The notes beneath the pieces are model-generated. The model saw only the letters and a program-made list of their open reading frames with translations. It did not search any database and was not told the DNA's origin. 64,000 nt of DNA from a virus. Lineage: Duplodnaviria; Heunggongvirae; Uroviricota; Caudoviricetes. A program made the translations under genes and the position numbers. This document shows positions 12,833 to 57,076 of the stretch, one piece after another. The DNA is taken from positions 58,449-122,448 of IMG/VR virus record IMGVR_UViG_3300037454_000478; one strand, 5' to 3'. How positions within the stretch are numbered: the stretch's first letter is position 1; every line of letters starts with the position of its first letter.

Positions 12833-12863
12833 GTTAAGTTTCTTCCAATGATGTTTATATATA
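12833..12863 (+). promoter_or_regulatory. conserved phage promoter GTTAAG-N15-TTTATATATA
   Basis: gttaag at 12833-38 and tttatatata at 12854-63; ATG at 12892. Confidence 0.6.
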
Positions 12864-12891
12864 CCCGAACCTAATAGGAAAGGGGTATAAA

Positions 12892-13107
12892 ATGGAAGAA
12901 ACAACACAATTCAATACATCCAAAGGCGACATCCTGATTATCACCAAGGATGGTTTGGGTAGGGATTTTCGATTCAAACTTCTCACTACCGATGGCGGTG
13001 GAAAAGATGCCCATATGCTTTGCAACGGCGAACTGGAATCCGCTTTTGAAAGTCATAAGAAGGCCATCCAAGCCGCATATCAAGAGTATTTGGACTCAAT
13101 TAACTAA
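12892..13107 (+). CDS. hypothetical protein (71 aa)
   Basis: ATG 29 nt after a conserved promoter box. Confidence 0.55.
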   Translation: MEETTQFNTSKGDILIITKDGLGRDFRFKLLTTDGGGKDAHMLCNGELESAFESHKKAIQAAYQEYLDSIN

Positions 13108-13127
13108 CCGGACAAAAATAGCGAAAA

Positions 13128-13955
13128 ATGAAAAACATCGATCTTAACAGCCTAACAAAAGCCGAACTCATCCAAGGCATCATCAACCTGACAAATAAGT
13201 ATAACGAATGCATCAAGTCACGTGGCTTTTTGAACATTCACAAGGTTCCATCGGCCAACACGCTTCGTACAAAGTCCCGCGAAGTGGTCGAGGAGAGTTT
13301 TACCCATGCTTGGGATTGGCTCCGTGAGGAGATCCGCGCCTATTACAACGTACTGGATGTGGATGTCGACAAGCAGGCCATTGAGGATCTCAAGGCAAGA
13401 ATTGAAAAGGAGGTTGAGGAAAACTACAAGGCGTACCGAACCGGTACTGATAGTGGTATTGCGGAAATCACCGAACTTATCCATAATTACATCATCAACT
13501 GCGGTATTCTCAACGCATTCCCGGATATCAAACTCGAGGATGTCATCATCGTTTCCGTTTCGGATGAATGCGTGAGCATCAAACTGAATAAATGTTTTGG
13601 TGGTGAGATCAACTATTACCACCGTAACAGCAGGCTTTCGTCCATAACCGATAATGAAACCAAGAAGATCGATGAGATCAACTTTGGCACCATCGGTGCA
13701 TTCGACTTGGATTCCGAGCGTGGTCGTCAACAGCTTTTCCTGATGAATCTGTTGAGCCATATCGGTTGCAACCAGGAGATTCGTACCAAAATGAACGGAA
13801 TCCTCGAAGGTCTCCGTGACATGAACCTCACCCGTATCCGCACAAACCATAAACTTCAAGACAGTATGGTTGCCGGCATCGATGAGATTGTGGCCCCATA
13901 CATCAACAGCGTGGCCACTGGTGAGTTCCTGTGGAAGCCATCCAAGACCGAATAA
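13128..13955 (+). CDS. hypothetical protein (275 aa)
   Basis: ORF; the competing antisense ORF 13218..13961 has shadow-ORF composition. Confidence 0.65.
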   Translation: MKNIDLNSLTKAELIQGIINLTNKYNECIKSRGFLNIHKVPSANTLRTKSREVVEESFTHAWDWLREEIRAYYNVLDVDVDKQAIEDLKARIEKEVEENYKAYRTGTDSGIAEITELIHNYIINCGILNAFPDIKLEDVIIVSVSDECVSIKLNKCFGGEINYYHRNSRLSSITDNETKKIDEINFGTIGAFDLDSERGRQQLFLMNLLSHIGCNQEIRTKMNGILEGLRDMNLTRIRTNHKLQDSMVAGIDEIVAPYINSVATGEFLWKPSKTE

Positions 13956-13973
13956 ATTCAAATTTTGCGCGGT

Positions 13974-14055
13974 TTTATGCGATTTAACGGCCGTTTGAGC
14001 TTACCCCCGAATAACTATATAGGGGATGATGAAATGGCCGTTAAATCGCGTTTTT
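13974..14055. repeat. structured intergenic element, copy A (long imperfect palindrome with conserved inner loop)
   Basis: Arms TATGCGATTTAACGGCCGTTT and AAATGGCCGTTAAATCGCG enclose the loop CCCCCGAATAACTATATAGGGG. Confidence 0.7.
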
Positions 14056-14073
14056 GAATACATATATTATTAC
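14040..14073 (+). promoter_or_regulatory. promoter variant GTTAAA-N15-ATATATTATTA
   Basis: ATG at 14090. Confidence 0.45.
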
Positions 14074-14089
14074 AATTAAACTCGCACAT

Positions 14090-14338: not shown

Positions 14339-14339
14339 T

Positions 14340-15946: not shown

Positions 15947-15965
15947 TCTCCGGGATATACGATCC

Positions 15966-17109: not shown

Positions 17110-17140
17110 GTTAAGATTTGACCTGTTTTTGTTATATATA
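17110..17140 (+). promoter_or_regulatory. conserved phage promoter
   Basis: gttaag at 17110-15 and gttatatata at 17131-40; ATG at 17166. Confidence 0.55.
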
Positions 17141-17165
17141 CATGTAAATTATAAAATACCTGAAT

Positions 17166-21574: not shown

Positions 21575-21585
21575 CTGTAGAATTT

Positions 21586-21680
21586 TTCCCCTTTTCCACA
21601 GGAAAATCACATCAAAACTTCCCTTTTTCCAAGGAAAAGACATGCCAAAACTTCCCTTTTTCCACGGAAACTACCTGAAC
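21586..21680. promoter_or_regulatory. array of three palindromic TTTTCC-N2/3-GGAAA sites with ~34 bp period (operator or iteron-like)
   Basis: cccTTTTCCacaGGAAAAtcacatcaaaa, cttcccTTTTTCCaaGGAAAAgacatgccaaaa and cttcccTTTTTCCacGGAAActacctgaac. Confidence 0.6.
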
Positions 21681-21685
21681 TGTTT

Positions 21686-21715
21686 GTTAACATCCGGGTA
21701 GTTTTATTTATATAT
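21686..21715 (+). promoter_or_regulatory. conserved phage promoter (GTTAAC variant), downstream of the triple palindrome array
   Basis: gttaac at 21686-91 and tttatatat at 21707-15; ATG at 21734. Confidence 0.5.
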
Positions 21716-21733
21716 CAATGAAATTGTAAAAAT

Positions 21734-23114: not shown

Positions 23115-23145
23115 GTTAAGGTTCAACCTCCGATGTTTATATATA
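23115..23145 (+). promoter_or_regulatory. conserved phage promoter
   Basis: gttaag at 23115-20 and tttatatata at 23136-45; ATG at 23166. The extended match to 12823-12870 includes ..gatgtttatatataccYgaac. Confidence 0.6.
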
Positions 23146-23165
23146 CCTGAACAAAGGAATATCAT

Positions 23166-26525: not shown

Positions 26526-26548
26526 CCAATAACAATCCAATACAAAAA

Positions 26549-26581
26549 ACCGGCGGTCGTTAAGATTTCGCCGGTTTTTGT
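26549..26581 (+). terminator. rho-independent terminator overlapping a promoter
   Basis: AAACCGGCG-gtcgttaagatttc-GCCGGTTTTT. Confidence 0.7.
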
Positions 26582-26590
26582 TTATATATA
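26559..26590 (+). promoter_or_regulatory. conserved phage promoter
   Basis: gttaag at 26559-64 and tttatatata at 26581-90; ATG at 26611. Confidence 0.5.
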
Positions 26591-26610
26591 TTTGATCAAA
26601 CTTTTTAATT

Positions 26611-26775: not shown

Positions 26776-27003
26776 TTGAATATGAAGAAATTATTTAGCA
26801 TTATTATTACGATTACGGTGCTGGCATGTGTCGCTCTTGATGTTGACCTTGCAGTTACCAACTACAACAACGGTAAGATCGGATTGATGATACTTTCGAT
26901 CATGGCAGGAGTATTGTGTTCTTTTGTTGCCGGCTCGAATATCTATGATATTATCCGAGGGATCCGCAAAAAAATAAAATCAATGGTTAACAATAAAGCC
27001 TGA
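26776..27003 (+). CDS. small membrane protein (75 aa)
   Basis: Two hydrophobic segments. Confidence 0.4.
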   Translation: MNMKKLFSIIITITVLACVALDVDLAVTNYNNGKIGLMILSIMAGVLCSFVAGSNIYDIIRGIRKKIKSMVNNKA

Positions 27004-27034
27004 TGCGTTATATAAACCTGAAAATATCATTATT

Positions 27035-28249: not shown

Positions 28250-28290
28250 CCTTTTTATTTCGTAAATCCTTTCCTTTTTGAAGCCCATTT

Positions 28291-28322
28291 GTTAAGTTAC
28301 AGATGGGTTTCTTTATATATAA
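28291..28322 (+). promoter_or_regulatory. conserved phage promoter
   Basis: gttaag at 28291-96 and tttatatata at 28313-22; ATG at 28340. Confidence 0.6.
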
Positions 28323-28339
28323 CCATAAAATTTATACAT

Positions 28340-30124: not shown

Positions 30125-30156
30125 GTTAAGTTTTCATAAGTTCCAATTATATATAC
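30125..30156 (+). promoter_or_regulatory. conserved phage promoter
   Basis: gttaag at 30125-30 and ttatatata at 30148-56; ATG at 30181. Confidence 0.6.
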
Positions 30157-30180
30157 CTGTAAAAACGGAAAGGACATATT

Positions 30181-32777: not shown

Positions 32778-32799
32778 CCGCACAATCGATCGATTTTTG

Positions 32800-32836
32800 A
32801 AAACCGGCTGGATTAAAACCGACCGGTTTTCTTTTA
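32800..32836 (+). terminator. rho-independent terminator
   Basis: AAACCGG-ctggattaaaaccga-CCGGTTTTCTTTT. Confidence 0.6.
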
Positions 32837-32862
32837 TATTATTACAAACCCAAGCGAACGAA

Positions 32863-34218: not shown

Positions 34219-34219
34219 T

Positions 34220-34300
34220 GGTTTATTTGCGCTATAATCGCATTTCTCAATTACCCAATATAGTTATGAGGGGGAAACATAAAAACGCGTTAAATCAAAG
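34220..34300. repeat. structured intergenic element, copy D (degenerate)
   Basis: TTTATTTGCGCTATAATCGCA...CCCAATATAGTTATGAGGGGG...AAAAACGCGTTAAATC. Confidence 0.45.
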
Positions 34301-34312
34301 TTATTTGCTGTT

Positions 34313-35449: not shown

Positions 35450-35483
35450 ATCCGAATGCATAAAAATTGCACGGATTTATGCG

Positions 35484-35513
35484 TTAACATCTTTTCGGGC
35501 GCGATTATATATA
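35484..35513 (+). promoter_or_regulatory. conserved phage promoter (GTTAAC variant)
   Basis: gttaac at 35484-89 and ttatatata at 35505-13. Confidence 0.45.
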
Positions 35514-35516
35514 TTC

Positions 35517-35879
35517 ATGATGAATTTCACAGTATATTATACGCGAAGAACCCGAGTGGGGTTGAAAGACTTCAGGAGAGTCATTTGGCCAATGATATAT
35601 CAGGCCGATAACGGAGATCATATAGTTGATATCAAGTACGGATACAATTATCAAACCACGGAACATTTTGAGGATTTCGCCTCGGTTCTCCCCGGTAAGA
35701 AATACAAGATCGTACACCAAACCCTTCCCAAAGAGGGTGATATACTTGTCCATGAGAAATCCGGCCGGAAATTTGTGCTCGGAAAGGACATGGAAGACTC
35801 CGTCATCCACAAGTTCCCCATGATGGAAAATGGACGTATCGTTGCCTATCTACGTGCGGAGGATTACTATAAGGATTAA
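35517..35879 (+). CDS. hypothetical protein (120 aa; the start may be the ATG at 35592)
   Basis: ORF. The first ATG sits only 4 nt after a promoter box, so the start is uncertain. Confidence 0.45.
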   Translation: MMNFTVYYTRRTRVGLKDFRRVIWPMIYQADNGDHIVDIKYGYNYQTTEHFEDFASVLPGKKYKIVHQTLPKEGDILVHEKSGRKFVLGKDMEDSVIHKFPMMENGRIVAYLRAEDYYKD

Positions 35880-35907
35880 CCCATATTAAACGTATGGGTT
35901 TTTTCAT
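35879..35907 (+). terminator. rho-independent terminator
   Basis: AACCCATA-ttaaacg-TATGGGTTTTTT. Confidence 0.7.
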
Positions 35908-35936
35908 TATATTATCCCATAATCAAACGAATAGTT

Positions 35937-38259: not shown

Positions 38260-38298
38260 AACCGGGAATCCCCCAAAATTTTTACGTCCGGAATTTTT

Positions 38299-38329
38299 GT
38301 TAAGTTTCGGACGTTTTCATTTATATATA
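38299..38329 (+). promoter_or_regulatory. conserved phage promoter plus shared leader
   Basis: gttaag at 38299-304 and tttatatata at 38320-29; ATG at 38358. Confidence 0.6.
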
Positions 38330-38357
38330 GGTGAAATTAAAAGGAAAGGAAAATAAA

Positions 38358-43758: not shown

Positions 43759-43786
43759 TAACGGGGCCCGCAAGGGCCCTGTTAAT
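43759..43786 (+). terminator. rho-independent terminator
   Basis: GGGGCCC-gcaa-GGGCCCTGTT followed by a T-rich run. Confidence 0.65.
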
Positions 43787-43811
43787 ATTTTATGGGTTTT
43801 TGTTATATATA
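43781..43811 (+). promoter_or_regulatory. conserved phage promoter (GTTAAT variant)
   Basis: gttaat at 43781-86 and ttatatata at 43803-11; ATG at 43842. Confidence 0.5.
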
Positions 43812-43841
43812 AACAGGAATAACCCCTTAAATTTAACTTCC

Positions 43842-44917: not shown

Positions 44918-44929
44918 ATCGCAATAAAC

Positions 44930-45018
44930 CGCGTTTTTATGCGATATAAAAGGAGATCTCCCCCGCCCCTATATAGTTATTCGGGACAGAGGAGATCTCC
45001 TTTTATATGCGAATTTTT
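44930..45018. repeat. structured intergenic element, copy B
   Basis: Perfect 20-bp inverted repeat GCGATATAAAAGGAGATCTCC / GGAGATCTCCTTTTATATGCGA flanking the loop CCCCTATATAGTTATTCGGG. Confidence 0.75.
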
Positions 45019-45025
45019 GAGGTTC

Positions 45026-45340
45026 TTATTCGGGGGTATTATCACCGGCAACCACATCCTTCTTATCGGACGTATCATATTTGGTAAGGAACCACTTGAT
45101 CACATAATCATACATCAGGAATTGGACAAAGAAACTACAGAAAATAGCTTCCCTGTCATAATCGAGCCAATAAATACCGGCAATACCCAAAAGGATGGCG
45201 ACCACGGTGCTGATTACTCGTTTCCAGCCGGTTGACGGATCCTTTGGAATGACTTTGATGATCAAATAGGTTATTATGTTACACATGAATATGTAAACAA
45301 TATTCAAGTTGTTGATGATATTTTCAAGCATTATCTCCAT
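45026..45340 (-). CDS. membrane protein (2-3 TM; holin-like, speculative)
   Basis: Hydrophobic segments; first gene of the minus-strand block, opposite the lysin. Confidence 0.45.
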   Translation of the reverse strand: MEIMLENIINNLNIVYIFMCNIITYLIIKVIPKDPSTGWKRVISTVVAILLGIAGIYWLDYDREAIFCSFFVQFLMYDYVIKWFLTKYDTSDKKDVVAGDNTPE

Positions 45341-45609
45341 AGCGAAATGATTTTATTTAATGGCTTTTCAAAATCCGAAATACGTGCCTTGCTATCCACG
45401 ACCCTGATGTAAATGGACGCCCTATCGAATAGTTCGGTACCGACCAATACGAGAGTTGAATCGATGGAGGCTTGCACCTGTTTGTTTTTGAATACATCAT
45501 CCAATGCCTTTTTTGTTATACAGACTATTGGATATTTATTGTAGCTCACCAATTTATCACTCGAATTGTGAATTGGGGCCACCACGTTAATGATATAAGT
45601 GTACGTCAT
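45331..45609 (-). CDS. hypothetical protein (92 aa)
   Basis: ORF in the minus-strand block. Confidence 0.45.
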   Translation of the reverse strand: MTYTYIINVVAPIHNSSDKLVSYNKYPIVCITKKALDDVFKNKQVQASIDSTLVLVGTELFDRASIYIRVVDSKARISDFEKPLNKIISLWR

Positions 45610-45611
45610 AA

Positions 45612-48065
45612 TTAAGGTCTATTTTCAAGTAAAAATGCAGAATTGATGTTGAACTCCTGTAGGTTTTCACCCTTGGTGTATTGGAGTTTAATATTATAAT
45701 AACCCGGTTTGAGTTTTGTAGTCTCCTGTGGCGTGATAAACCAACCCTGCATTCCACCATAATCTTCGATCTTAAAGGTCTTACGGGTGCTGACCTTGCC
45801 ATCATCCGGGCTTGGTTTGCTTGTAAGGTATGATTCAAATTGCTCGCCGGTGGATTTATTTTCAAATATCCAGTTACGAACCTTTATATCCCTACTATGT
45901 CCGAGATGAGGGGCTGCATATATGAGATCCATGGAACCTATGATACTGTTTGTGAGGGGGATCAATACATGCATGAATGGATGGAATTTGAAGCTATACA
46001 TGATATTTTCAAGCTCCACATTCCTATCATCATCGGCTATTTTCTTTATGAATGGACGTAGTGGATTTTCAACAGTCCCATAGTACCTACACACACCGAT
46101 AATCCTCATGTCCGGGATAGGGTCGCTCACAATCCATATATAATCATGTATGTTTGAGTTAAGTACCTCAAATATGGTTTCCCTATTTTTTGACGATACA
46201 TCGAGGGTCAATGAATCATTGAATTTCAATGTGGAAACATCTTCCGGTATATCGAATATAACGGTATGGTTCACATTCATCCAATCCCCATAGAAGGGTT
46301 GCAAGAATATGTTATGTTCCCGGTATTCATAATCTTCTTTATCATCAACGGCAGGATTGATTTGGAATGATTTGAACCAATTCAATCCGGCATCGAAGCT
46401 TGCATTCATGTTCGTTGGATAGAAGGTTTCCGCATCGTTGCGTTTCACCACCTTGTAGAGATTGACATGGTTATGGGTATTATCGTCAATTTCCACTTCC
46501 ACGGTATTTGTCCATGTATTACCGCAAAGTGTATCAAATTGGAAGGTGAGTGTGTAATGACCGGGGTTCATGAATCCAAGTTCAAATTCCGGCAAGAACA
46601 TCCAATTTGTTATACCAATGCCTTCGCGTACCGGTTTTTCCTCGCCGGTTTCCCTGTCAATATACGTTGGATATACTGGTTCTATCGGTACAAATGTGAC
46701 CACGGAACCGATTTCATCCTTGGTTCTCCACTGAAGGGTTTCCTTGTATATACGGTCATTTTCATTATAAGCCAATATCGGGTTATCTTCGGTAACCTTG
46801 AAATGAACAACACCATAAGTGCCACCCATGTGGTATTTGAATACTTCGCCGGACGTTGCGAATATTGTTCGATGTTCCTCACGGAGTTCCCCTTCAAAGC
46901 CAAACACCGGCCCATTGTCGATATAATTACTAAATAAGGTGTCCGAATATGCCCTGTTATTATGCTCCATCATTTTGACACGCTTATCATATACCATGTC
47001 AAAGGAATGTATATTACTGATGGTCGTATAATTATCGATACCTTCACCATGAAGGACTTTCATTGTATATGAAAACACCCAATGCTCGAGGGTTGAGTGA
47101 ATGGTATCTATGTGAATAGGTGTAAAATATGTCGAATAGAAGTTACCAAGTAGGGTCATTTTAAGGCAAAGGTCAATGAGTTGCCACTTGGTTATTGTTT
47201 TCTCAAGAACCGGATTGCTTTCATCATCATACTGGATTTGTCCATTCTCCATGTGTACCCTATCAAGTGCCATGTAGAGACCTATATACGTGGTCTTTGA
47301 ATTGTTAAGGAACTCCGTAATGAACTCATAATTGAGCTCATGATTAAGGTTGGTGAGAAAATATTCCTCCATACCTTCGTGGTGGCGTTTCCAAAATTCT
47401 TCGATACGGACGAGGTCTCCCCATTCAAACCATGCAAGGCTATTTTGGAGACTGTTATACGAACCTTTGTTGGCTACGATATCCCAGTAGTTCATTAATA
47501 GTTCCTTGTATTTGCGGTTCAATGTGATGTTATCATTTGATTCTTCATGAACATCGACATCATAGATGGCTTTTTGGATGGATTCCGGAATATGGACATC
47601 GAAATTGGCGAGATTTGTTTTAAGAACCTCGTTGTCTCCATAAAAATCCGCAGCAATCTCATATTCATGCTCACCATCGGCATCCGTGAGGTATAATGAA
47701 TCATGAATCTCACCGGCTTCCCTCGAGCTGGCGATGATATATATCATGTGAACATAAAAATTATTGTATGGGAATCCATTCGATGTGAAATTATCGGTCT
47801 TTAGATAATCAAGATTCATGTACAACTTTTCGTTGATGATTTCACCCTGGTCATCCGGATTATACACATCGGGGATATTTTGTCCCATATTAAGTAAGGC
47901 AAACGTATCCGATTCCACTCGGGCATGGACAATTCTGCTTGTGGATATGAAACAAATTTTGCGTACGTAGTTTAGGTTAACGGATTGGCCGTTTTCAAAC
48001 CAAAACACGTAAGGTTTGTCTCCATTAAATACTCTGCCATCTTTTATATCGACAAATTCTATCAT
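45612..48065 (-). CDS. large structural protein (tail fibre or baseplate component, 817 aa)
   Basis: Long ORF in the baseplate block. Confidence 0.65.
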   Translation of the reverse strand: MIEFVDIKDGRVFNGDKPYVFWFENGQSVNLNYVRKICFISTSRIVHARVESDTFALLNMGQNIPDVYNPDDQGEIINEKLYMNLDYLKTDNFTSNGFPYNNFYVHMIYIIASSREAGEIHDSLYLTDADGEHEYEIAADFYGDNEVLKTNLANFDVHIPESIQKAIYDVDVHEESNDNITLNRKYKELLMNYWDIVANKGSYNSLQNSLAWFEWGDLVRIEEFWKRHHEGMEEYFLTNLNHELNYEFITEFLNNSKTTYIGLYMALDRVHMENGQIQYDDESNPVLEKTITKWQLIDLCLKMTLLGNFYSTYFTPIHIDTIHSTLEHWVFSYTMKVLHGEGIDNYTTISNIHSFDMVYDKRVKMMEHNNRAYSDTLFSNYIDNGPVFGFEGELREEHRTIFATSGEVFKYHMGGTYGVVHFKVTEDNPILAYNENDRIYKETLQWRTKDEIGSVVTFVPIEPVYPTYIDRETGEEKPVREGIGITNWMFLPEFELGFMNPGHYTLTFQFDTLCGNTWTNTVEVEIDDNTHNHVNLYKVVKRNDAETFYPTNMNASFDAGLNWFKSFQINPAVDDKEDYEYREHNIFLQPFYGDWMNVNHTVIFDIPEDVSTLKFNDSLTLDVSSKNRETIFEVLNSNIHDYIWIVSDPIPDMRIIGVCRYYGTVENPLRPFIKKIADDDRNVELENIMYSFKFHPFMHVLIPLTNSIIGSMDLIYAAPHLGHSRDIKVRNWIFENKSTGEQFESYLTSKPSPDDGKVSTRKTFKIEDYGGMQGWFITPQETTKLKPGYYNIKLQYTKGENLQEFNINSAFLLENRP

Positions 48066-48081
48066 GTTTTATGATTTTTTC

Positions 48082-48843
48082 TTACCAATCAAAGTATACG
48101 ACTCTTCCATCCTTTGTTTCGCCTATATTGGCGAGGCAGAAATCACCGAAGTTGCCGGATATATTATACCCTATTGATTTTAGTTCCTCACGGCAGGTGA
48201 CGAGCCATTCAATTGTTTGTTTCTGTTCCTTGGAAATCGATTCGTTTTGGAGGGCTTCAGCTTCACGATGTTGGGCCACCATGCATTCCAACGACAATAA
48301 CCCTTTACCGACATGTGAGCGGCATAGTGTATAAAAATCCTTAACTTTTTTTGTATATACATCGATAGCCTCACGAATGATGTAACTATCCGTAACCTTA
48401 TATACATCCGGCAAGGTTGTGAAGTGTTTACCCTTCATACGGCGGAACTGATTGATGGTTTCATCCCGGTTCCCCACGAAATTGGTATCGAATATCACTT
48501 TTATAACTCGATTATTACCGATATCATACACCATGCCTTCACCACCGGCACCAAGAATACGTTTGATTCTATCCACTGGCTGTTTCCTAATCATATCAAG
48601 GAATTTTCGACAGGTTTCATCGGTAACTTTACCACCCATACCGGATTTCGAATAAAAGTATGCCGAAAGAATGGCATCCAGCGTGTTTGTACTCATATTT
48701 GGTGGACAAAGCCCGGCCAAAAGCTCCTCATCAAACTCATCATCATCCATCAGGCCGGTGAACAATACCCTGACTTCTTCAATACCGAACTCGGGGTTGA
48801 GATACTCACGGGATTCCAATATATATTCGAACAATGTTTTCAT
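48082..48843 (-). CDS. protein kinase-like fold protein (APH/ChoK-like)
   Basis: Gly-rich loop ILGAGGEGMVYDIG plus VIKVI. C-terminal LANIGETKDGRVVYFDW resembles the HGDLHPGN...IDxE region of PKL kinases. Confidence 0.5.
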   Translation of the reverse strand: MKTLFEYILESREYLNPEFGIEEVRVLFTGLMDDDEFDEELLAGLCPPNMSTNTLDAILSAYFYSKSGMGGKVTDETCRKFLDMIRKQPVDRIKRILGAGGEGMVYDIGNNRVIKVIFDTNFVGNRDETINQFRRMKGKHFTTLPDVYKVTDSYIIREAIDVYTKKVKDFYTLCRSHVGKGLLSLECMVAQHREAEALQNESISKEQKQTIEWLVTCREELKSIGYNISGNFGDFCLANIGETKDGRVVYFDW

Positions 48844-48861
48844 TATCCAGCGGGATTTTAT

Positions 48862-50550
48862 TTATTCGTAAATTATGGTTAACGGATCAGTGACCGTGGT
48901 GAAGGTGACGGGGTCACCATCGGCGGAGCTGATGAACGACCATCCACCCATCAATACCGGGAACTGGTCAGTATTGTCGAGGTATATATTACCATGACTA
49001 TCAAGACCTATATTTGGATTTTCACCATCATATAGATATACCGTTTCCTTCTTAATGTCATAAGTACAACGGGAAGGATCATAGTTATAGGTCTTGTTCA
49101 CATAATAGTGATTTTTAAGGGCCTGTTCATTACGGTCGGAGATGAAGTATATGTTGACACCATCAATCGCATCGATTTCATCCTTCAAAAGGTGGATGAT
49201 ATCCGATTTCGGGATAAATATATCCGATTTGATATCGGCAAAGAAACTACCAATGAGTTTACGGATTTGATTTGAAATATATGGAGTATCGTATGTGGTG
49301 TTCTTGAGTTTGACATATACGTACATGGCATATTTGGCTATCTCCGGGTCAAACACATTGAATACCGCACCGGCAAGTTGTTGGCCGGTCTTATTGATAT
49401 GGGATACGATGGATTGTTTTTGTTGTTTGGAAAGGAAAAAGTCGCTTTCCTTGAGTTTGAAGTAATCCAACCCATCCGACATCTTGATTTTGAAATTGGC
49501 CAACACAAGGCTGTTGATGATAAGCGAACCCGGCTCGCTCCATGTACGGTTATATCCACAGAAGGAGAAACGATTGAGGTATTGCTTATAGTTCTTGGGA
49601 TCTGCCAATACGAGGGAACGACTATTCAAACCAATCATATTACGGACGGTTTCGATATCCTCGGAATTGGTGCCACTGTTTACATTATCATTATCACAAA
49701 GGGCAATGTTCAAAATGGAATTACCATCAATATCATTACCAAGGGTATCGTACAAGGAATCGTTAAACTTGAAGGATGCATTGGATCCGCTCGATATGTT
49801 TCCATTTTCACCATTATGGAGGAGGTAGGTTACTTTTATATCGTCCTCATTTTCAAGAGCTTTACCGTATTGCCCATTACCGAATATGATGTCAATACCT
49901 TTTTTCAATGATACCCGGACTGTATATTCATGGCTTTCCGGATCCATGTCGTATAAGCTTTCTCTCCTCTCCCATATCTCATTGTTCACCATAACCTCAA
50001 GGTAATCAAGGTCACAATCACCCTGGAATGGGACATTGATCGTATACAACTCACCACCGGCGGCATGGAATGTTTGACTTTCGAATTTACCTTCAACAAT
50101 GGTAAGGTACTTTGTGGTATTGTCCATACGAGGTGAAAGTATAATAGCCTCTTGTGGTAAAATGATGTTGTATGTCGATCCATTTTGTTCGCAATTCAAT
50201 GTGGTACGGTTGCGAATAACAACATCACTATATTGGTTATTGCTGGGCATAAACGATACGGCAACGGTACATGATGTGGCCGTACCGAGTGATGGCTGAT
50301 ACCCGGAAATTGATGCGAGGTTGTAGATGGAACGCTTACGGGTGGCCGTATACTTGTTTTGTTCCGTTAAACTATCCTCAATATATGAAAGGATATTTTG
50401 AACGGCTGCGCTAACCACGGTGATCAATTGTCCAAAAATGGAACTATTTGTATATTTGTATGATAATCCATTAAGCACGGTCGAAAGGTAATCTCGAACA
50501 GCTTTTTCGAATTTATCATATTGCATTTGTATCATTGAAAATAATTTCAT
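48862..50550 (-). CDS. baseplate protein (gpJ/gp6-like by position)
   Basis: 562-aa ORF immediately downstream of the gp25-like gene. Confidence 0.55.
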   Translation of the reverse strand: MKLFSMIQMQYDKFEKAVRDYLSTVLNGLSYKYTNSSIFGQLITVVSAAVQNILSYIEDSLTEQNKYTATRKRSIYNLASISGYQPSLGTATSCTVAVSFMPSNNQYSDVVIRNRTTLNCEQNGSTYNIILPQEAIILSPRMDNTTKYLTIVEGKFESQTFHAAGGELYTINVPFQGDCDLDYLEVMVNNEIWERRESLYDMDPESHEYTVRVSLKKGIDIIFGNGQYGKALENEDDIKVTYLLHNGENGNISSGSNASFKFNDSLYDTLGNDIDGNSILNIALCDNDNVNSGTNSEDIETVRNMIGLNSRSLVLADPKNYKQYLNRFSFCGYNRTWSEPGSLIINSLVLANFKIKMSDGLDYFKLKESDFFLSKQQKQSIVSHINKTGQQLAGAVFNVFDPEIAKYAMYVYVKLKNTTYDTPYISNQIRKLIGSFFADIKSDIFIPKSDIIHLLKDEIDAIDGVNIYFISDRNEQALKNHYYVNKTYNYDPSRCTYDIKKETVYLYDGENPNIGLDSHGNIYLDNTDQFPVLMGGWSFISSADGDPVTFTTVTDPLTIIYE

Positions 50551-50566
50551 ATCCTATGTTTGTTTT

Positions 50567-50929
50567 TTAGATATAATTCACGGCACCCTGTGATACCTTA
50601 TATATTTTGGAGTATGATTCAGTTTCCTTTGAGAATGTGACCTTCATGAGCATGATATCATGTTGGGTACCGGCAAGGAACTCGACATTTACAGTTACTG
50701 TCCAGCCAAACAACTCCACATTTTGCTCGATATAGTGTTTCACCTCATTTTCGACAGTTTTATTACCGATGTTGGGATTGAAAAGGTACGTATCGAAACG
50801 GGTACCAAAATCGTATGCCCCAAGAACATCGCCACAACGGGTGTCGAAAAGCATCTCTATCTGTTGGATGATAAGGTCAACATCCTGATCGAGAACGATC
50901 GCGTCCAATGTACTACAAAAATCAATCAT
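50567..50929 (-). CDS. baseplate wedge protein, gp25/GPW-like
   Basis: 120 aa; LFDTRCGDVLGAYDFGTRFDTYLF matches the gp25 family motif LxTRxGERxxxPxFG. Confidence 0.55.
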   Translation of the reverse strand: MIDFCSTLDAIVLDQDVDLIIQQIEMLFDTRCGDVLGAYDFGTRFDTYLFNPNIGNKTVENEVKHYIEQNVELFGWTVTVNVEFLAGTQHDIMLMKVTFSKETESYSKIYKVSQGAVNYI

Positions 50930-50931
50930 TG

Positions 50932-52542
50932 TTATTGTTCATATTTATAATGGGCTGTTGTAACCAACCCGAAATTTTCATCGAGTATATACGCTATACC
51001 TTCGGTCGCGGCATTTGGTAGAAGGTTACCATCAATGCAGAATACGATGGATGCCGGCGTGCGTCCGATTTCAATGAAATCAACCCCTTCGATGCGTAGG
51101 TGAAATACACCCACTTTCGATTTGTACTTATTAAGGTTGAGCGCAATGTTTTCGGATACTGCCGGGTGAATGGTAATGTCGCCAAGGGGTTCCGTGCGGA
51201 TAAACACAGGACGTATGATATTTGATTTATAATCTTCGGGCCTATTGATTTTCACAACCTCTTTGTGGATTTTATTGACCACACTTACTTCATAGTTATT
51301 CATATCTACTAAATCAAGATTTATTCTTTTGCCATGACGCATATTAGCGCTCGTTGGGACAAGGAACTTGTATGTTTCCTTATTGAGGGGAATCTCATTG
51401 GTTACGAGATCAACAACCGGCAAGGTCGTGACGCGAAGTTTCTCCTGATCATTTTTGTAATCCTCCGGGAGACCGCTAACATCGTATATCTCAACACTAC
51501 CTTGAAGAATAAGTCCATCTTTATACCAATCCCATGGTTTTTCTATGATGGATTTGTTGAATTTATGTTCATTGACGGAACTGGTAAGCCATGTTTTTTC
51601 AAAATAAACATTCTCCTTGTCGCGGATGATCAACTCAAAAATCATGCGGTTTTCCCTTGGAACCGGCATGTCAAACTCGTCCTTAATAATATGACCCTCA
51701 TCATCAACTTCCCACATCCCATATGTTTCCGCGAGGTATAAATCAAGGTCTTCTTCGTACACATCATTAAATCCTAATGAAATATTCGCATCACCATCGA
51801 AATTAAGATCTGCATGGAAGAAATCCATTAGTTTGTTTCCAAACGGCATACTTGTTATGCCACCTGTAAATTCCGAGGAACGTATGTAATAATTTCCTTC
51901 ATCACTCAAAATGACCGGGTCAAGATCAATATGTATCAAGGAGCCGGTGTTATTGATGTTTTCCGTTTCACCACAAATTTGCGTACGGAAACCAATCCAT
52001 TCGTCATTATAGGTGATGGAAATAGGATCCAATATATTGAAATCGACACAGAGCTGGAAATCATCCATCTTATAACGAACTTTCCCGTTAGTGGCGCGCG
52101 AACTACCAAGGTCAAAAAGATAACTTCCGAGCACCACCTTTACTCCAGCAATGTATATGTATGCAGTGATGATGTATTGGATGCCGGAAAGACTCATCTC
52201 ATGATCCTCGCCAAACTCCTTGTCATAAAAAGATTCCATCGAATAACGAGGAATAAATAACGTTATTTGGCGTTGTTGAACCGTACGCGGGATGTAATAG
52301 TTTGAAAATATCCGGGTTTCCGGAACCCATATGTTCGTATTACTACGGACAACATTATGGATATAGTTATTTTCGAAATTATCAATCAATCGTTGGTTAC
52401 GGATAAAATGTATCTCATTACCAGCGGTCATGTACGAATATTCACCATGGGTAACATCGATGATGCCGGTATCATGAAACTCCACCATGTAGTGAAGTTT
52501 CTTCGTACCATGCATAATATTTATGTGTGAACGCTGTTTCAT
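50932..52542 (-). CDS. baseplate/tail structural protein (536 aa)
   Basis: Long ORF at the head of the minus-strand operon. Confidence 0.6.
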   Translation of the reverse strand: MKQRSHINIMHGTKKLHYMVEFHDTGIIDVTHGEYSYMTAGNEIHFIRNQRLIDNFENNYIHNVVRSNTNIWVPETRIFSNYYIPRTVQQRQITLFIPRYSMESFYDKEFGEDHEMSLSGIQYIITAYIYIAGVKVVLGSYLFDLGSSRATNGKVRYKMDDFQLCVDFNILDPISITYNDEWIGFRTQICGETENINNTGSLIHIDLDPVILSDEGNYYIRSSEFTGGITSMPFGNKLMDFFHADLNFDGDANISLGFNDVYEEDLDLYLAETYGMWEVDDEGHIIKDEFDMPVPRENRMIFELIIRDKENVYFEKTWLTSSVNEHKFNKSIIEKPWDWYKDGLILQGSVEIYDVSGLPEDYKNDQEKLRVTTLPVVDLVTNEIPLNKETYKFLVPTSANMRHGKRINLDLVDMNNYEVSVVNKIHKEVVKINRPEDYKSNIIRPVFIRTEPLGDITIHPAVSENIALNLNKYKSKVGVFHLRIEGVDFIEIGRTPASIVFCIDGNLLPNAATEGIAYILDENFGLVTTAHYKYEQ

Positions 52543-52664
52543 GTATTCGATAATGTATCATTATAAATATAATAATTATATCACAAACACTTTCTTATCA
52601 ATCATTTTAATTTTCGGTTAGGTTTCATATATTACCATGATTTATAGTCAAAACGGGTATTTAT

Positions 52665-55625
52665 ATGATATTAGACTACGAATATTCACGGGATAAAAAG
52701 CAATTTAGCATATCCTTCATCAAGCCGGATGGCAATAAGGAGGTAATGCACTTTGATAACATTCAAAAGTTCCTCACCTATTACTACACGCCCGAGGGAC
52801 GTTTCAATACATGGAATGAGGCCAAGTGTGATACCAAGTATACTTACAATCCAAGTAAGTTTGATATCAAGGAGTTTATTTATAACCTTGCACCGGAAAT
52901 TCAGGAGAAATTGGATGGTAAAACCTTCCCTAAACTTTATACGTTCGATATTGAAACCCGATTAAAATCGGGCCCTCACGGGGAGATTGGTTTGGGTGAT
53001 TTCACAGATCCTACCGTGGCGGATGAGCCTATCCACTGTATCTCGTTGGTTTCGCCGAATTTGAACAGTGTGGTTATGGGCGATAAACCATTGAGCGAGA
53101 AACAAATCCAATGGGTTGCCGACCAGTTCTACGCATATCTTGATAGTATTCCTTTTTATCGCACATTAGGCATTCCAAAGCCTCAATTCAAGTATGTGTA
53201 CTTTGACAGCGAGGAGCGAATGATTCGGTTTTTCCTTGAGAATGTTATTGCCAAGGTACCGATCCTTGCCGGTTGGAACTCCATCGGATACGACTGGTGT
53301 TACATCACAAGTCGTATCAAAAACTTCTACCCCAACCTGTCCGTGGCAATGGGTTCCCATACTCATACGGTGAATTATTCCAATTACACCAACATCAAAG
53401 GTGAGACCATCAAACTTCCATATCCTACCCACACACTTATCCTTGATATGATGGATATCATTGACAAGGAGGACACGCAGGTGTTGCCTACGAAGGAGTC
53501 AATGAACCTTGACTATATATCCGGTGAAGCATTGGGGGCCAATAAGGTCGAGTATGATGGTAACCTTGAGGAACTTTATATCAACGACTTTCCTCGTTAC
53601 GTATTTTACAACTTGATCGATAGTATCCTCGTCCAGTTGAACGATAAGAAGTTCAAAACGATGGATCACATTTACATGTATTCCTTGTATGCCAAGGAGC
53701 GTATCGGTCAGTGTTTTAGTAAAATCGCCCTCACGGAGTCATTGATTCTCAAGCACTTCCGTTCCACAAACACAAAGATTGTTTGGGAACCAAAAGAACA
53801 GGTGGAACGTGGACGATTGGTCGGAGCGTATGTGAAGATGCCGGTTGCCGGATTGTGGGAGCTGGTATGCTGTAATGACTTTTCCGGCCTATATCCAACG
53901 ACCGGTATTGTAACTAACATCTCATTCGATAACTTCGTTGGAACCTTCTATGACGAGGAGAAACTTGCCCCGTATCGTAGAGACCCGGAAAATTACATTG
54001 TGGTGTGTGCAAGTGTATACAAAAACAAAGGCACACTCGCAAAACCAAAACTTGGAGATTTCATTGTCCAGTATCTTGACGAGGAGAAACTCGCTCCGTA
54101 TCGTGCGGATAAAAATTATTTTGTATCCATCAACGGGCACGTATACAAAAACGATAAGGACTATACCCTTAAACAGGTATGGAACAATCTTCGTTTGGAA
54201 CGTAAGTATAGTAAATACCTCTCCAAGAAACTTGACGCCCATATCAGTAATGATATTGCCCATATCCTTCGTTGCTACAGTGAAAATGGTAACCTTGACA
54301 AACTTCATCATGATGTACTCAATACATATACCGATGATGAAATCACCAAGCTCAAGGAGATGGGTTATAACTTCACCTGTGGTGAAGACCTTGTGGGCTT
54401 GTCGGAAGCAGATCTTAAAGAGCTTTCCCGTATAATCAAGGAGGAAATCACTTATCTTTCCAACCTTGAGCAGGCCATCAAGCTCATGATGAATAGTATA
54501 TACGGTGGTACCTCCCATCAGGCATTCTATTGGTTCAATATTGCCCTTGCCAACGATGTTACCGGTGAAGGTCGTAACCTCACCCACCACATGGAACGTC
54601 ACCTCAATGAGTTTTGGCGCGATGCATGGCAGACCAACCCGGAACTTAAGAAAATTCAGGATGAACTTGGTATTAAACTCAAGCCCAAAGAGGTCATTGA
54701 TCAGATTCTTGCCAATTCACATGATAACTCCTTGGTCACCTGCGTGTATGGAGATACCGACTCATTGTACCTTTCATACAAAGACCTCATTGATACCATT
54801 GAAGGTTCGGAGAGCATGACGCTTGATGAGAAACTTAAAATCATCCTCAAGATCAACACCGAGTTCCTTGACAAACATAACAAGGAGCACATCCGGGATT
54901 ATTTCCTCTCGCGTAATGTCCGTCCTAATACTGCCGACCTTGAAGATTTCGAGTTGGAAACCGTCAATAAACGTGGTGTTTGGCTCCATGAAACGAAAAA
55001 ACGTTATGGTCAAATCCTCCTTTGGAAAGAAGGTAAATTCTATGACATTGATGACCTACCTATTAAGGTCAAAGGCCTTGAGGTTATCAAATCCTCATAC
55101 CCAACCATCGCCCGTAAACAACTCAAACAAATGCTTCGCTTCTTATTGGAATATGACGGTAAGTACCTCACACAGGAACTTAACCTTATGTCACAAAAGT
55201 TCCTCAAGGAGTTCGAGGAGGCGGATGTTGATATGATTAGTGGTAACCTTCGTGTGAATGGATACTTGCAAAAAGTCGTTCAGGACACCGATCCTAACGG
55301 ATTCACAACCGTTCCTAAAGCACCGTTTAATGTCAAGGCATTGGCGATGTATAATTGGCTTAATAATATCCACCATCTCGGTAGTGAACCGATTTATGGC
55401 GGTAAACTCAAGTACTATACCATGAAAGGCTCCAGTGAGAAAAATGGCGACATTTACTTTGCATATGAGGGCACAAAACACCCGAAATGGGCGGAAAAAT
55501 ATGCACCGATTGATCCAAGACGTATGTATCAAAAGTTTGTGCTTGACCCAATCAACAGAATCCTCTCAAGTGCAAGTATGCCATTACTACGGGCAGATGG
55601 AAGTATTCAGTTGGATCTATTTTAA
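52665..55625 (+). CDS. family B DNA polymerase
   Basis: Exo I YTFDIETR; Pol C motif CVYGDTDSLYLSY; KKRYG. Confidence 0.9.
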   Translation: MILDYEYSRDKKQFSISFIKPDGNKEVMHFDNIQKFLTYYYTPEGRFNTWNEAKCDTKYTYNPSKFDIKEFIYNLAPEIQEKLDGKTFPKLYTFDIETRLKSGPHGEIGLGDFTDPTVADEPIHCISLVSPNLNSVVMGDKPLSEKQIQWVADQFYAYLDSIPFYRTLGIPKPQFKYVYFDSEERMIRFFLENVIAKVPILAGWNSIGYDWCYITSRIKNFYPNLSVAMGSHTHTVNYSNYTNIKGETIKLPYPTHTLILDMMDIIDKEDTQVLPTKESMNLDYISGEALGANKVEYDGNLEELYINDFPRYVFYNLIDSILVQLNDKKFKTMDHIYMYSLYAKERIGQCFSKIALTESLILKHFRSTNTKIVWEPKEQVERGRLVGAYVKMPVAGLWELVCCNDFSGLYPTTGIVTNISFDNFVGTFYDEEKLAPYRRDPENYIVVCASVYKNKGTLAKPKLGDFIVQYLDEEKLAPYRADKNYFVSINGHVYKNDKDYTLKQVWNNLRLERKYSKYLSKKLDAHISNDIAHILRCYSENGNLDKLHHDVLNTYTDDEITKLKEMGYNFTCGEDLVGLSEADLKELSRIIKEEITYLSNLEQAIKLMMNSIYGGTSHQAFYWFNIALANDVTGEGRNLTHHMERHLNEFWRDAWQTNPELKKIQDELGIKLKPKEVIDQILANSHDNSLVTCVYGDTDSLYLSYKDLIDTIEGSESMTLDEKLKIILKINTEFLDKHNKEHIRDYFLSRNVRPNTADLEDFELETVNKRGVWLHETKKRYGQILLWKEGKFYDIDDLPIKVKGLEVIKSSYPTIARKQLKQMLRFLLEYDGKYLTQELNLMSQKFLKEFEEADVDMISGNLRVNGYLQKVVQDTDPNGFTTVPKAPFNVKALAMYNWLNNIHHLGSEPIYGGKLKYYTMKGSSEKNGDIYFAYEGTKHPKWAEKYAPIDPRRMYQKFVLDPINRILSSASMPLLRADGSIQLDLF

Positions 55626-55670
55626 AACAGTTGAAAAACGTATATATTCAGTAAATAAACCACATTAGTT

Positions 55671-56228
55671 ATGCAACTTACAGGTAAGGAAATCGTACAG
55701 GAAAACATTATCACCGGATATGTTCCCGAGGCAATTCAGCAACAGGGTATTGACCTTCGTTTAATGGAGGTTCGTGAATTTGGCCACGTTAACGAGCAAA
55801 CCAAGGTATGGGAACAAAACTTCCACCTTGATTGTATCGGAATCATCCCCACCGAAGGTAAAACCACCCTTCCAAAGTCACGAGTTGTTGAAAAAGGACT
55901 ATATGCCGATATGTCCGGTTGGAAGCTCAAACCCGGCTATTACGAGGTCATCTTTGAAGAGGGCTGCGTTATGCCTAAAGACAGAGTCATGGTGTTTATC
56001 ACCCGTTCAAGCGGCGTCCGTTGTGGTGTTGAGATCATCTGCGGCCAGTTCGATGCCGGATTTAAGACCGAACATATGGGTTGCTTTATGCGTGTCCACG
56101 AGCATGTGTTCATCGGAGATCACGCCCGCATCGCCCAAACCCGTATCACCAAGACCGCTCCGGTTGACGAGGACAAGGTATATAACGGCCAATGGCAAGG
56201 TGACAAGCAACGTGCTGAACAAAAGTAA
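55671..56228 (+). CDS. dCTP deaminase / dUTPase-fold protein
   Basis: N-terminal MQLTGKEI...GIDLRL and SSGVRCGVEI resemble Dcd MRLCDRDI...VDVRL and SSLARLGL. Confidence 0.65.
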   Translation: MQLTGKEIVQENIITGYVPEAIQQQGIDLRLMEVREFGHVNEQTKVWEQNFHLDCIGIIPTEGKTTLPKSRVVEKGLYADMSGWKLKPGYYEVIFEEGCVMPKDRVMVFITRSSGVRCGVEIICGQFDAGFKTEHMGCFMRVHEHVFIGDHARIAQTRITKTAPVDEDKVYNGQWQGDKQRAEQK

Positions 56229-56234
56229 CCGATT

Positions 56235-57044
56235 ATGCTACCATTAATTAACACGTTGAAATACGCGAATGCTCAAGTGGTCTTTCAGGAGTTTCCCGGA
56301 GAGACCACTCTTGCCATAAATATATCGGGATGCCCTAATCATTGTCCGGATTGTCATTCTCCTTATCTGTGGAAAGATGAAGGTACCCCTTTAACGGTAG
56401 ATGCCTTGACCGGACTTATCGAACCATACAAGGATACAATCACATGTGTTGGTTTCATGGGAGGAGATCAGAATATCCGTGCTCTGCATTATCTCATTGA
56501 TGCTGTGAAACCTACGTATCCCGGCCTCAAATTTGGATGGTATAGCGGCAGGAACCAATGGACTGACAATATCATCGAACCATTTGATTATGTCAAATTC
56601 GGGCCATATAAAAAGGAACGTGGTGGATTGGATAATCCAACAACCAACCAAATAATGCTCAAGCGTATTGCCAATGAGGATGGTTCCTTTGTTATGTGGC
56701 TTGATATTACGAAATACTTTTGGAGAAGCACTCCTCAAGAGCTAAAGGATGTATACCTTAAAGTAACGTATAAAAATATTGCGTTTTTACATCATGTAGC
56801 CGGAGAAACCATGTTGTTCCAGGGTATTGGGATGACTGTTGATGGATATGCGACAAAACTCGTACAACCCACCGAGGAGAATTTTGTCAAAGGCTTCATC
56901 ATGTCACTTAATGGTCAAACTCCGCCGGATGAATGCGTCACTCATGAGTTCCGTAGAAAATGGGGGAGTAATGATGAATGGGAGGATGCGGGCCCCTTAC
57001 CACCTTTTCGAGCGATGTCGGATCCCAAAAAAATTGCTGAATAG
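56235..57044 (+). CDS. nrdG: anaerobic ribonucleotide reductase activating protein NrdG (radical SAM) with an extra ~120-aa C-terminal domain
   Basis: PGETTLAINISGCPNHCPDCHS (CxxxCxxC), GFMGGDQ and WYSGRNQW align with E. coli NrdG. Confidence 0.75.
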   Translation: MLPLINTLKYANAQVVFQEFPGETTLAINISGCPNHCPDCHSPYLWKDEGTPLTVDALTGLIEPYKDTITCVGFMGGDQNIRALHYLIDAVKPTYPGLKFGWYSGRNQWTDNIIEPFDYVKFGPYKKERGGLDNPTTNQIMLKRIANEDGSFVMWLDITKYFWRSTPQELKDVYLKVTYKNIAFLHHVAGETMLFQGIGMTVDGYATKLVQPTEENFVKGFIMSLNGQTPPDECVTHEFRRKWGSNDEWEDAGPLPPFRAMSDPKKIAE

Positions 57045-57045
57045 T

Positions 57046-57076
57046 GTTAATTTTGTTCCTTGCCCGTTTATATATA
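57046..57076 (+). promoter_or_regulatory. conserved phage promoter (GTTAAT variant) plus shared leader
   Basis: gttaat at 57046-51 and tttatatata at 57067-76; ATG at 57105. Confidence 0.55.

Follow-up and report, generated by a model that had tools for sequence, protein, structure and literature searches.

In T4-like phages, an early promoter and a terminator stem-loop are combined in repeated units termed PeSL (promoter-early stem-loop) cassettes, in which the stem-loop can lie upstream of, between or over the -35 and -10 boxes and an N17 spacer separates these boxes (PMC2839356, PMC4122927). They are concentrated in hyperplastic regions before orphan genes, have a lineage-specific consensus and are implicated in modular shuffling, including recombination between copies and mini-circles (PMC2839356, PMC4122927). 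The housekeeping promoter of Bacteroidota, read by sigma-ABfr, combines a weak -33 TTTG with a -7 TAnnTTTG/TAHHTTTG element, in which T-12, A-11, T-8, T-7, T-6 and G-5 are near-invariant (PMC6847099). Promoters of Bacteroidota phages are poorly characterised. A 64,000-nt stretch of a virus of the Caudoviricetes (i.e. positions 58,449 to 122,448 of IMG/VR record IMGVR_UViG_3300037454_000478; hereafter the window, numbered from its first letter) contains a repeated intergenic motif consisting of a GTTAAG-type hexamer, a fixed spacer and a TATATA-type box. A sequence-only reading of this window had described the motif as a phage promoter and had listed 14 copies upstream of + strand genes. By analogy, the repeated element matches PeSL cassettes as the closest known kind (Arbiol et al. 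2010, PMC2839356; Comeau et al. 2014, PMC4122927), and both this likeness and the fusion of about half of the copies to a hairpin were absent from that reading.

Occurrences of the motif in the window were compared with expected counts, which were derived from dinucleotide shuffles for the forms anchored on TTATAT. The 10-mer TTTATATATA was present 8 times (0.5 expected) and its exact combination with the hexamer core, GTTAA-N14-18-TTTATATATA, 6 times (0.00 expected). GTTAAN-N16/17-TTATATA was found at 12 sites on the + strand and at none on the - strand as compared to 0.03 expected per strand, and a looser form, RTTAAN-N16/17-TTATAT, at 15 and 0 sites (0.24 expected). The half-motifs alone were weakly or not enriched (TTATATA, 20 and 16 versus 8.3 expected; GTTAAG, 18 and 12 versus 11.9), indicating that the enrichment resides in the fixed-spacing combination. 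A weight matrix trained exclusively on 14 sites from related phages, with none from the window, recovered 11 window sites at >8 bits (null, 0.07 per strand). With weak variants included, the window holds 15–17 copies, every one of which lies in a + strand gene block and is oriented toward the next gene. Hexamer and TTATAT are 16 nt apart at 16 of 17 sites and 17 nt apart at the other, and the distance from TTATAT to the start codon is 18–33 nt except for the site at 35483, where it is 6 nt. Window and relatives together yield an extended consensus of (T)GTTAAG-aTTc-N-TTC(c/t)-TTTATATATA-nn-TGAA; a T precedes GTTAAG in ~80% of sites, and among the 12 strict window sites, 5 have TTG before TTAAG. 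Promoters of alternative or phage sigma factors typically combine high information content with a rigid spacer.

All 14 of the positions listed by the sequence-only reading (4088, 12833, 14040, 17110, 21686, 23115, 26559, 28291, 30125, 32812, 35484, 38299, 43781 and 57046) hold the described sequence. All are real, with the provisos that the copy at 14040 is weak and falls under the matrix threshold and that the hexamer of the copy at 35484 (i.e. GTTAAC) starts at 35483; the list had missed copies at 26986 and 35885 and a weak, hexamer-less copy at 9835–9877. The flank gatgTTTATATATAccYgaac does recur at 12850 and 23132. Start codons had been placed 25–35 nt past the box; the ATG in fact lies ~15–30 nt after the 10-mer ends, and 3 nt after it at a single site. 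An association with gene starts was upheld, all copies being intergenic before gene starts and none being present on the - strand, and comparison with related phages agreed through both the recovery of 11 window sites by the relatives-trained matrix and the retention of the motif at orthologous positions. The idea of a distinct phage promoter class is supported by the strictly intergenic location, co-orientation and rigid geometry, and by the limitation of the motif to + strand genes of accessory, nucleotide-metabolism or anti-defence types. Behaviour of the element as a promoter is supported by its intergenic, co-oriented placement, its rigid two-part geometry and its conservation at orthologous positions.

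The genes behind the motif also include many small open reading frames (ORFs) without an assigned function. Named products include QueC-like, RtcB, NrdD, a CCA-adding/HD enzyme, a YodL-like protein, flotillin, a Tad3-like protein, UDP-glucose dehydrogenase, glucosaminidase and a Lar-like protein. Two of these are candidate anti-defence genes within operons predicted to be motif-driven: a 447-aa protein with an N-terminal Tad3 (Thoeris inhibitor) domain (window 36302–37645) and a Lar-like restriction-alleviation protein (57497–57742). Sites 38299 and 57046 share an identical 32-nt stretch of box and 5' untranslated region (5'UTR) and are followed by unrelated proteins. No copy precedes the structural genes of the - strand.

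A stable hairpin followed by a T-run is present at 9 of 17 sites, with free energies (dG) of -13 to -24 kcal/mol. In these copies the hexamer lies in the loop or at its edge, the 3' arm lies in the spacer and the T-run merges into the TTT of the box, and the cassette hairpins were the top-ranked terminator-like structures in an independent scan of the window. In about half of the copies, a predicted intrinsic terminator and a putative promoter share the same DNA. The other 8 sites lack a hairpin and retain hexamer, spacing and box, which argues that the constraint acts on DNA geometry rather than on an RNA fold.

The conservation of the cassettes was examined in IMG/VR and metagenome contigs whose core proteins are 60–86% identical to those of the window, and the same cassette was found there in many copies. 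Orthologous copies retain hexamer, spacing and box, but their stems, spacers, flanks and neighbouring genes differ. The copy at window 57046 retains hexamer, spacing and box in the orthologous sites of L001 and L004, with different flanks; the copy at 43781 has an unrelated stem in its L134 ortholog at 11537; the copy at 32812 and L134 788 have unrelated stems with the same loop type; and the copy at 38299 has a similar stem with wobble and compensatory changes in L055 6526 and L134 5679. More distant lineages (L002/L124, L142) carry CTTAAT, CTTAAG or CTTAAC with N14–16 spacers, and in L142, whose sigma factor is only 51% identical, the motif is still present as CTTAAC-N15-TTATATATA. The first genes downstream turn over rapidly by comparison with the core: 6 of 12 comparable genes are absent from syntenic relatives and the others are 31–47% identical, versus 65–87% for core genes. 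The ORFs at 35517 and 35937, each with its own cassette, are both missing from L134, and gene order is rearranged beside 38299, L134 5679 and L134 6464. Judged by these comparisons, the cassettes mark the borders of small accessory genes subject to gain, loss and reshuffling among relatives. In wider searches, an exact-motif scan of IMG/VR gave mostly single chance matches among the matches listed, with two related contigs having three each, and a search for TGTTAAG-N15-TTTATATATA in 185,579 bacterial and archaeal genomes gave, among the matches listed, scattered singles across many phyla and no multi-copy genome, which gives no pointer to the host.

The DNA polymerase encoded in the window matches gp43 of 2319 phage records, which are mostly T4-like, with best matches to Flavobacterium phage MaF61 and Tenacibaculum phage pT24 (~25% identity). 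Other T4-like markers in the window are a baseplate wedge gene, NrdD/NrdG and a gp30.3 domain; a terminase is encoded on a contig adjoining the window and the sigma-bearing relative L142 has a Gp23 capsid gene. By gene content, the phage is a distant T4-like myovirus. No near-identical or close phage genome was found in GenBank. The window is ~95% coding (non-coding, ~5%) and is organised as blocks at 1–44917 (+), 45026–52542 (-, structural), 52665–58440 (+, DNA polymerase and others) and 58602–63867 (-). A Shine-Dalgarno motif precedes 1 of 79 genes as compared to 7 expected (i.e. it is depleted), and A makes up 63–73% of bases at -11 to -13 and 53% at -3 relative to the starts. Such A-rich, Shine-Dalgarno-poor starts are given as a signature of Bacteroidetes (PMC6847099), and these translation signals make Bacteroidota very probably the host phylum. 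The few named matches of the UDP-glucose dehydrogenase (36–39% identity) are mostly from Bacteroidota, with a Microgenomates and a Woesearchaeota metagenome-assembled genome at comparable identity, and are a weak pointer to the host. Scans of the window for tRNA and Rfam families gave no match. An archaeal TATA-box/BRE reading of the motif was rejected because the genome is T4-like with Bacteroidota-type translation signals.

Extension of the genome using contigs 100% identical to the window across the overlap revealed a sigma-70-family gene of 329 aa at L139 2975–3964, ~8.4 kb left of window position 1. Its product contains Sigma70_r2 and Sigma70_r4, both over the Pfam cut-off, and aligns with RpoS/SigA across regions 2–4. 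The protein is conserved in the lineage at 42–100% identity (homologs P0121–P0240), all listed matches being metagenomic, and a search of bacterial genomes returned no relatives. The region 4.2 helix S(V/I)AR(V/I)SQI is nearly invariant in the lineage, and by hand alignment region 4.2 appears to differ from that of Escherichia coli sigma-70 at the TTGACA-reading residues. A degenerate copy of the motif precedes the sigma gene in three lineages; in L139 the gene is preceded by a T5orf172/MUG113 gene. Upstream of the sigma gene of L142, a 427-nt region (9574–10000) contains 5–6 copies of (A/C)TTAAGCTGGT, repeats with the same TTAAG core as the hexamer and a possible regulatory or iteron-like role.

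We infer, at a probability of about one half, that the motif is read by the host core polymerase with the phage sigma-70-family factor. On this proposal the cassette would be a two-part promoter of sigma-70 geometry, with the hexamer (T)GTTAAG at -35 to -30, a 17-bp spacer and TATATA within TTTATATATA as a -10-like element at -12 to -7. Transcription would start at the conserved nnTGAA ~6 nt past the box (TGAA at about -2 to +2), leaving an A-rich 5'UTR of ~15–25 nt suited to translation without a Shine-Dalgarno sequence. The terminator of the upstream gene would be overlaid on this promoter, with the hexamer in the loop, the 3' arm in the spacer and the U-tract formed by the T-run that opens the box, such that in about half of the copies a single 45–50-bp unit would end one transcript and begin the next. 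Reading of the motif by host core RNA polymerase with the 329-aa sigma factor would create a phage-specific early or middle regulon. Region 4 of a sigma factor requires a -35 element, and among the classes in the window the motif alone has one. Indirect support for this reader comes from the non-host consensus, the rigid spacing and the joint occurrence of sigma and motif down to 51% sigma identity. The sequence-only reading had raised a phage-encoded factor as a possible reader; the presence of such a factor in the genome, with regions 2 and 4, makes a phage-specific reader plausible and supplies a named candidate, whereas the deviation from the host consensus is no proof by itself. A wider and slightly more tentative proposal, put at a little under even odds, is that the lineage runs most non-structural transcription via its own sigma factor and that the terminator-embedded promoters double as shuffling points (i.e. 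a PeSL system cut off from the host sigma). As part of this wider proposal, the weakened motif at the sigma gene implies either autoregulation or a hybrid promoter that the host enzyme fires first.

Several observations weigh against reading by the phage sigma. Its gene sits outside the window, and a relative with a 44%-identical sigma shows mainly TTATTATATA boxes and not this motif. The degenerate motif before the sigma gene fits an ordinary host-read early gene at least as well as autoregulation. The unmodified host enzyme must still read something in the phage, and no convincing cluster of host-type promoters was seen in the ~84 kb of genome examined. PeSL promoters of other T4-like phages are host-sigma promoters (PMC2839356, PMC4122927), and for this reason a non-host consensus alone does not prove a phage factor. 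One register of the motif keeps the TA....TG of the host element, and a few copies (i.e. 26587 and one in L055) contain a perfect TAHHTTTG. Searches with T4 gp55 against ORFs of the lineage loci, which cover the genomes in part, gave no match; the sigma may be either an extra factor or the late one. Promoter and terminator activities are predicted from sequence alone.

These points lead to the strongest alternative, which we regard as possible and distinctly less probable than reading by the phage sigma: the cassettes would be PeSL-type early promoters read right after infection by unmodified host polymerase with sigma-A, and the phage sigma would be an early product directing a later class. 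The T4-like precedent favours this alternative, as PeSL promoters are host-sigma promoters with a lineage-varying consensus and T4 early promoters are described as not sigma-70-like. It is further favoured by the early appearance of the downstream genes (anti-defence and host-takeover types), by the motif variant at the sigma gene in three lineages, by the lack of another host-type promoter set in the ~84 kb, and by the retention of TA....TG of the -7 in one register together with the T before GTTAAG, which yields TG/TTG like the host -33. Likeness to the host promoter extends to the likely host phylum, an AT-rich -10 region opening with TA, a TG ~6 nt past the box in most copies and a T or TT before the hexamer G in many.

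The detailed match to the host element is, however, incomplete. The motif, aligned as TATAnnTG or as TATATATA, agrees with TAHHTTTG at 4 of 6 near-invariant positions in either register; the two misses fall at T-8/T-7 (or bring A-7/A-5 in the other register), positions that along with T-6 and G-5 are near-invariant in the host (PMC6847099), and other bases are invariant in the motif. The view of the sequence-only reading that the motif is not the canonical Bacteroidota pattern was thus borne out. A perfect TAHHTTTG was found only at 26587 in the window and at L055 6526 in a relative. The host -33 is weak whereas the hexamer, extending as TTAAG, is the strongest part of the motif, and forcing TTTG-N19-21-TAnnTTTG onto the motif gives a spacing to the box TA of 22 or 26 nt, off the N19–21 of the host. 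In the window, TTTG-N19-21-TAnnTTTG itself occurs 0 and 1 times on the two strands; TAnnTTTG occurs 26 times on the + and 34 times on the - strand, mostly within genes and with no enrichment upstream of genes; and canonical TTGACA/TATAAT sites are not enriched in three 20-kb segments (54 versus 61, 49 versus 49 and 59 versus 59 expected). With host sigma-A as the reader, moreover, no promoter class bearing a -35 element would be identified for the phage sigma, which has regions 2 and 4.

A middle promoter of MotA/AsiA style, in which host sigma-A reads the TATATA region and a non-sigma phage activator reads GTTAAG in place of the -33 contact, is improbable. Such logic is known in T4-like phages, where a phage-specific upstream element replaces the host -35 contact (the MotA box at -30 with a sigma-70 -10), and PmSL elements in phage nt-1 combine a middle promoter element with a stem-loop (PMC4122927). 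It would agree with an upstream hexamer that is lineage-specific (GTTAAG here, CTTAAT/CTTAAG in L002/L124 and TGCAAC in MaF61) next to a TATATA-type box common to all. The hexamer here is at -35 with a 17-bp spacer, unlike a MotA box at -30, the window yielded no MotA- or AsiA-like protein, the TATATA box is a poor host -7 element, and a full sigma with region 4 is the simpler reader.

Even less probable is a non-promoter function, with the motif acting only as an RNA- or DNA-level signal (e.g. a terminator with an AT-rich tail or a site of RNA processing, recombination or packaging). Half of the copies are good predicted terminators, PeSL-type repeats are also recombination substrates and variable genes are flanked by cassettes. 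Against this, the 8 hairpin-less copies keep hexamer, 16-nt spacing and box, the orientation is always that of the downstream gene with none on the other strand, and the distance to the ATG varies (18–33 nt) while internal spacing is fixed, pointing to a two-part site at the DNA level; a recombination role would supplement and not replace promoter function. A T4-type late promoter read by a gp55-like sigma, suggested by TATATATA being one base off the T4 TATAAATA and by the normal presence of gp55 in T4-like phages, is the least probable of all, as gp55 promoters are single TATAAATA elements upstream of late genes without a -35 element whereas hexamer and fixed spacing are the most constrained features here, the - strand structural genes lack the motif and show an TTATTATATA(A/G) box instead, the downstream genes are of accessory or early type, and no gp55 homolog was found in the partially covered lineage loci.

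The individual copies, all on the + strand, differ in the presence of a hairpin and in the match to the consensus. Among the hairpin copies, a variant cassette at 4075..4123 has a 15-bp stem with TTAAAA in the loop, a T-run and the box TTTATATTCA, and lies upstream of the QueC-like gene (ATG 4145). The stem-loop at 21667..21721 (dG -15.5) spans GTTAAC and is followed by a T-run and TTTATATATcaaTGA upstream of ORF 21734; three tandem ~33-nt units at 21575–21680, each a small hairpin (AAAACTTCCCTTTTTCCAnGGAAA), lie directly upstream of this cassette (21686). A terminator hairpin 3' of NrdD (26545..26595; dG -18.3) has GTTAAG in its loop and the sole 17-nt spacer, and precedes ORF 26611; its box, TTTATATATATTTGA, also holds a perfect host-type TATATTTG. 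At 28280..28326, a 13-bp-stem terminator hairpin with the hexamer in the loop and then TTTATATATAAcc precedes the CCA-adding/HD-domain gene (ATG 28340). A variant 3' of the flotillin gene (32799..32847) has a terminator hairpin (dG -16.1) with ATTAAA in the loop, then TTTTATATTATT, and is upstream of ORF 32863. In the copy at 35878..35920, absent from the earlier list, the hairpin loop holds ATTAAA/TAAAC, and a T-run and then TTATATTATCCC follow; this copy precedes ORF 35937, which is missing in relatives. The top-scoring copy (38284..38334) has a 13-bp-stem terminator hairpin whose loop holds TTGTTAAG, followed by TTTATATATAGGTGA, and precedes ORF 38358. At 43759..43816, 3' of the UDP-glucose dehydrogenase gene, a GC-rich terminator hairpin is directly followed by GTTAAT-N16-TTATATATAAAC upstream of ORF 43842. 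A weak variant 3' of the reverse-transcriptase gene (9835..9877) has a terminator hairpin, a T-run and TTTATATACATGAAA with no GTTAA hexamer, and is upstream of ORF 9888.

The remaining sites are described by hexamer, spacer and box. Two promoter copies without a hairpin, GTTAAG-N15-TTTATATATAcccGA at 12833..12868 and GTTAAG-N15-TTTATATATAccTGA at 23115..23150, lie upstream of ORF 12892 and of ORF 23166 with the NrdD operon, respectively. The weak variant GTTAAA-N16-ATATATTATTAC (14040..14075) precedes ORF 14090, and the promoter copy GTTAAG-N16-TTATATATAcaTGT (17110..17145) precedes ORF 17166 and the RtcB gene. A second copy absent from the earlier list, GTTAAC-N16-TTATATAAAccTGA (26986..27021), is upstream of ORF 27035; GTTAAG-N16-TTATATATAccTGT (30125..30160) is upstream of a YodL-like ORF (30181); and GTTAAC-N16-TTATATATATTC (35483..35518) is upstream of ORF 35517, a gene missing in syntenic relatives. 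The last promoter copy, GTTAAT-N15-TTTATATATAGGTGA at 57046..57081, lies in the second + block and precedes ORF 57105.

Other repeated or structured elements were observed in the genome. A possible second promoter class, GTGTTT(C/G)-N8-11-TTATTATATA(A/G), occurs upstream of structural and terminase operons, with sites at window 59916 (-) and 52575 (-), L136 5441 (+)/5454 (-) and L139 11493 (+), and forms a palindrome at the junction where the terminase and structural genes diverge. TTATTATATA boxes are also the dominant type between the genes of L265, a distant sigma-bearing relative. Window 52543–52664, the divergent region that separates the structural operon from the DNA polymerase gene, has a T4-late-like TATAAATA at 52562 (+) that is kept in L001 and L004, and a degenerate motif, TTTAAT-N15-ATATATTAccaTGA, at 52606–52640 before the DNA polymerase gene. 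A second repeated element, with inverted arms GCGATATAAAAGGAGATCTCC/GGAGATCTCCTTTTATATGCGA around a CTATATAGTTAT core, is present at window 44918–45025 and 58441–58545 and at L139 6542–6636 (i.e. at both convergent gene-block junctions in the window and the one in L139), with partial copies at 13956–14053 and 34219–34312; it has no Rfam match and could serve as a bidirectional terminator or represent a mobile or structured element. A diversity-generating retroelement occupies window 5138–9826, with a variable repeat (VR) at 7447–7630, a template repeat (TR) at 8419–8602 and a reverse transcriptase at 8639–9826; the 184-nt TR matches the 3' end of an 831-aa tail-fibre-repeat gene at 88% identity, and 21 of 22 mismatches are at template adenines. 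The isolated T4-like Bacteroidota phage MaF61 of Flavobacterium (L123, PQ858689.1) has, on the - strand of 1–27600, a repeated intergenic TGCAAC-N14-TGCATT-(0-3)-TTTATATAC that is often in a hairpin and also lacks the host TAnnTTTG. This pattern suggests that phages of this group commonly join a TATATA-type box to a lineage-specific upstream element.

A search of the literature on the motif and on phage sigma factors of Bacteroidota gave nothing specific, and neither this motif nor a sigma-promoter pair was found described for Bacteroidota phages. The motif combines a compact form and high information content with conservation throughout the lineage. If it is read by the phage sigma, the pair would constitute an orthogonal transcription module for engineering of Bacteroides or Prevotella, and T4-like phages would be able to swap host-sigma early promoters for a regulon of their own. 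If host sigma-A is the reader, then the accepted -33/-7 model of the Bacteroidota promoter would be too narrow. With either reader, the PeSL idea of a combined terminator, promoter and recombination hot-spot would extend to a distant T4-like branch and another host phylum, and the cassettes would provide a practical marker of gene-cassette boundaries in such metagenomic genomes.

Among known systems, the sigma cascade of Bacillus phage SPO1 (gp28, gp33/34) redirects the host core polymerase to middle promoters of AGGAGA-N17-TTTnTTT and late promoters of CGTTAGA-N18-GATATT. The present phage resembles SPO1 in having a phage sigma-70-family factor and many similar non-host two-part promoters with a fixed ~17-bp spacer; it differs in phage family and host, in that the link between sigma and motif is one we infer, and in the apparent presence of a motif variant at the sigma gene. 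The resemblance to PeSL cassettes includes a T4-like genome, 15–17 repeated intergenic two-part promoters with a fixed ~17-bp spacer, and nine hairpins. A stem-loop over the -35 hexamer and spacer, as here, is one of the PeSL subclasses (PMC2839356). The copies lie in variable + strand accessory blocks before small accessory or orphan genes, are rare (here none) at structural modules, and flank insertions, deletions and rearrangements between relatives. Four of six defining PeSL features were found wholly or in part, and a host-like promoter consensus was not among them: GTTAAG-N17-TATATA is unlike the host consensus, whereas described PeSL promoters resemble sigma-70 promoters. The host phylum is Bacteroidota rather than Proteobacteria, the leader is A-rich with no Shine-Dalgarno sequence, and the genome encodes its own sigma-70-family factor, the activity of the cassettes being a prediction from their DNA. 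The PeSL design is already known; what is new is its occurrence in a Bacteroidota T4-like lineage with a non-host promoter consensus.

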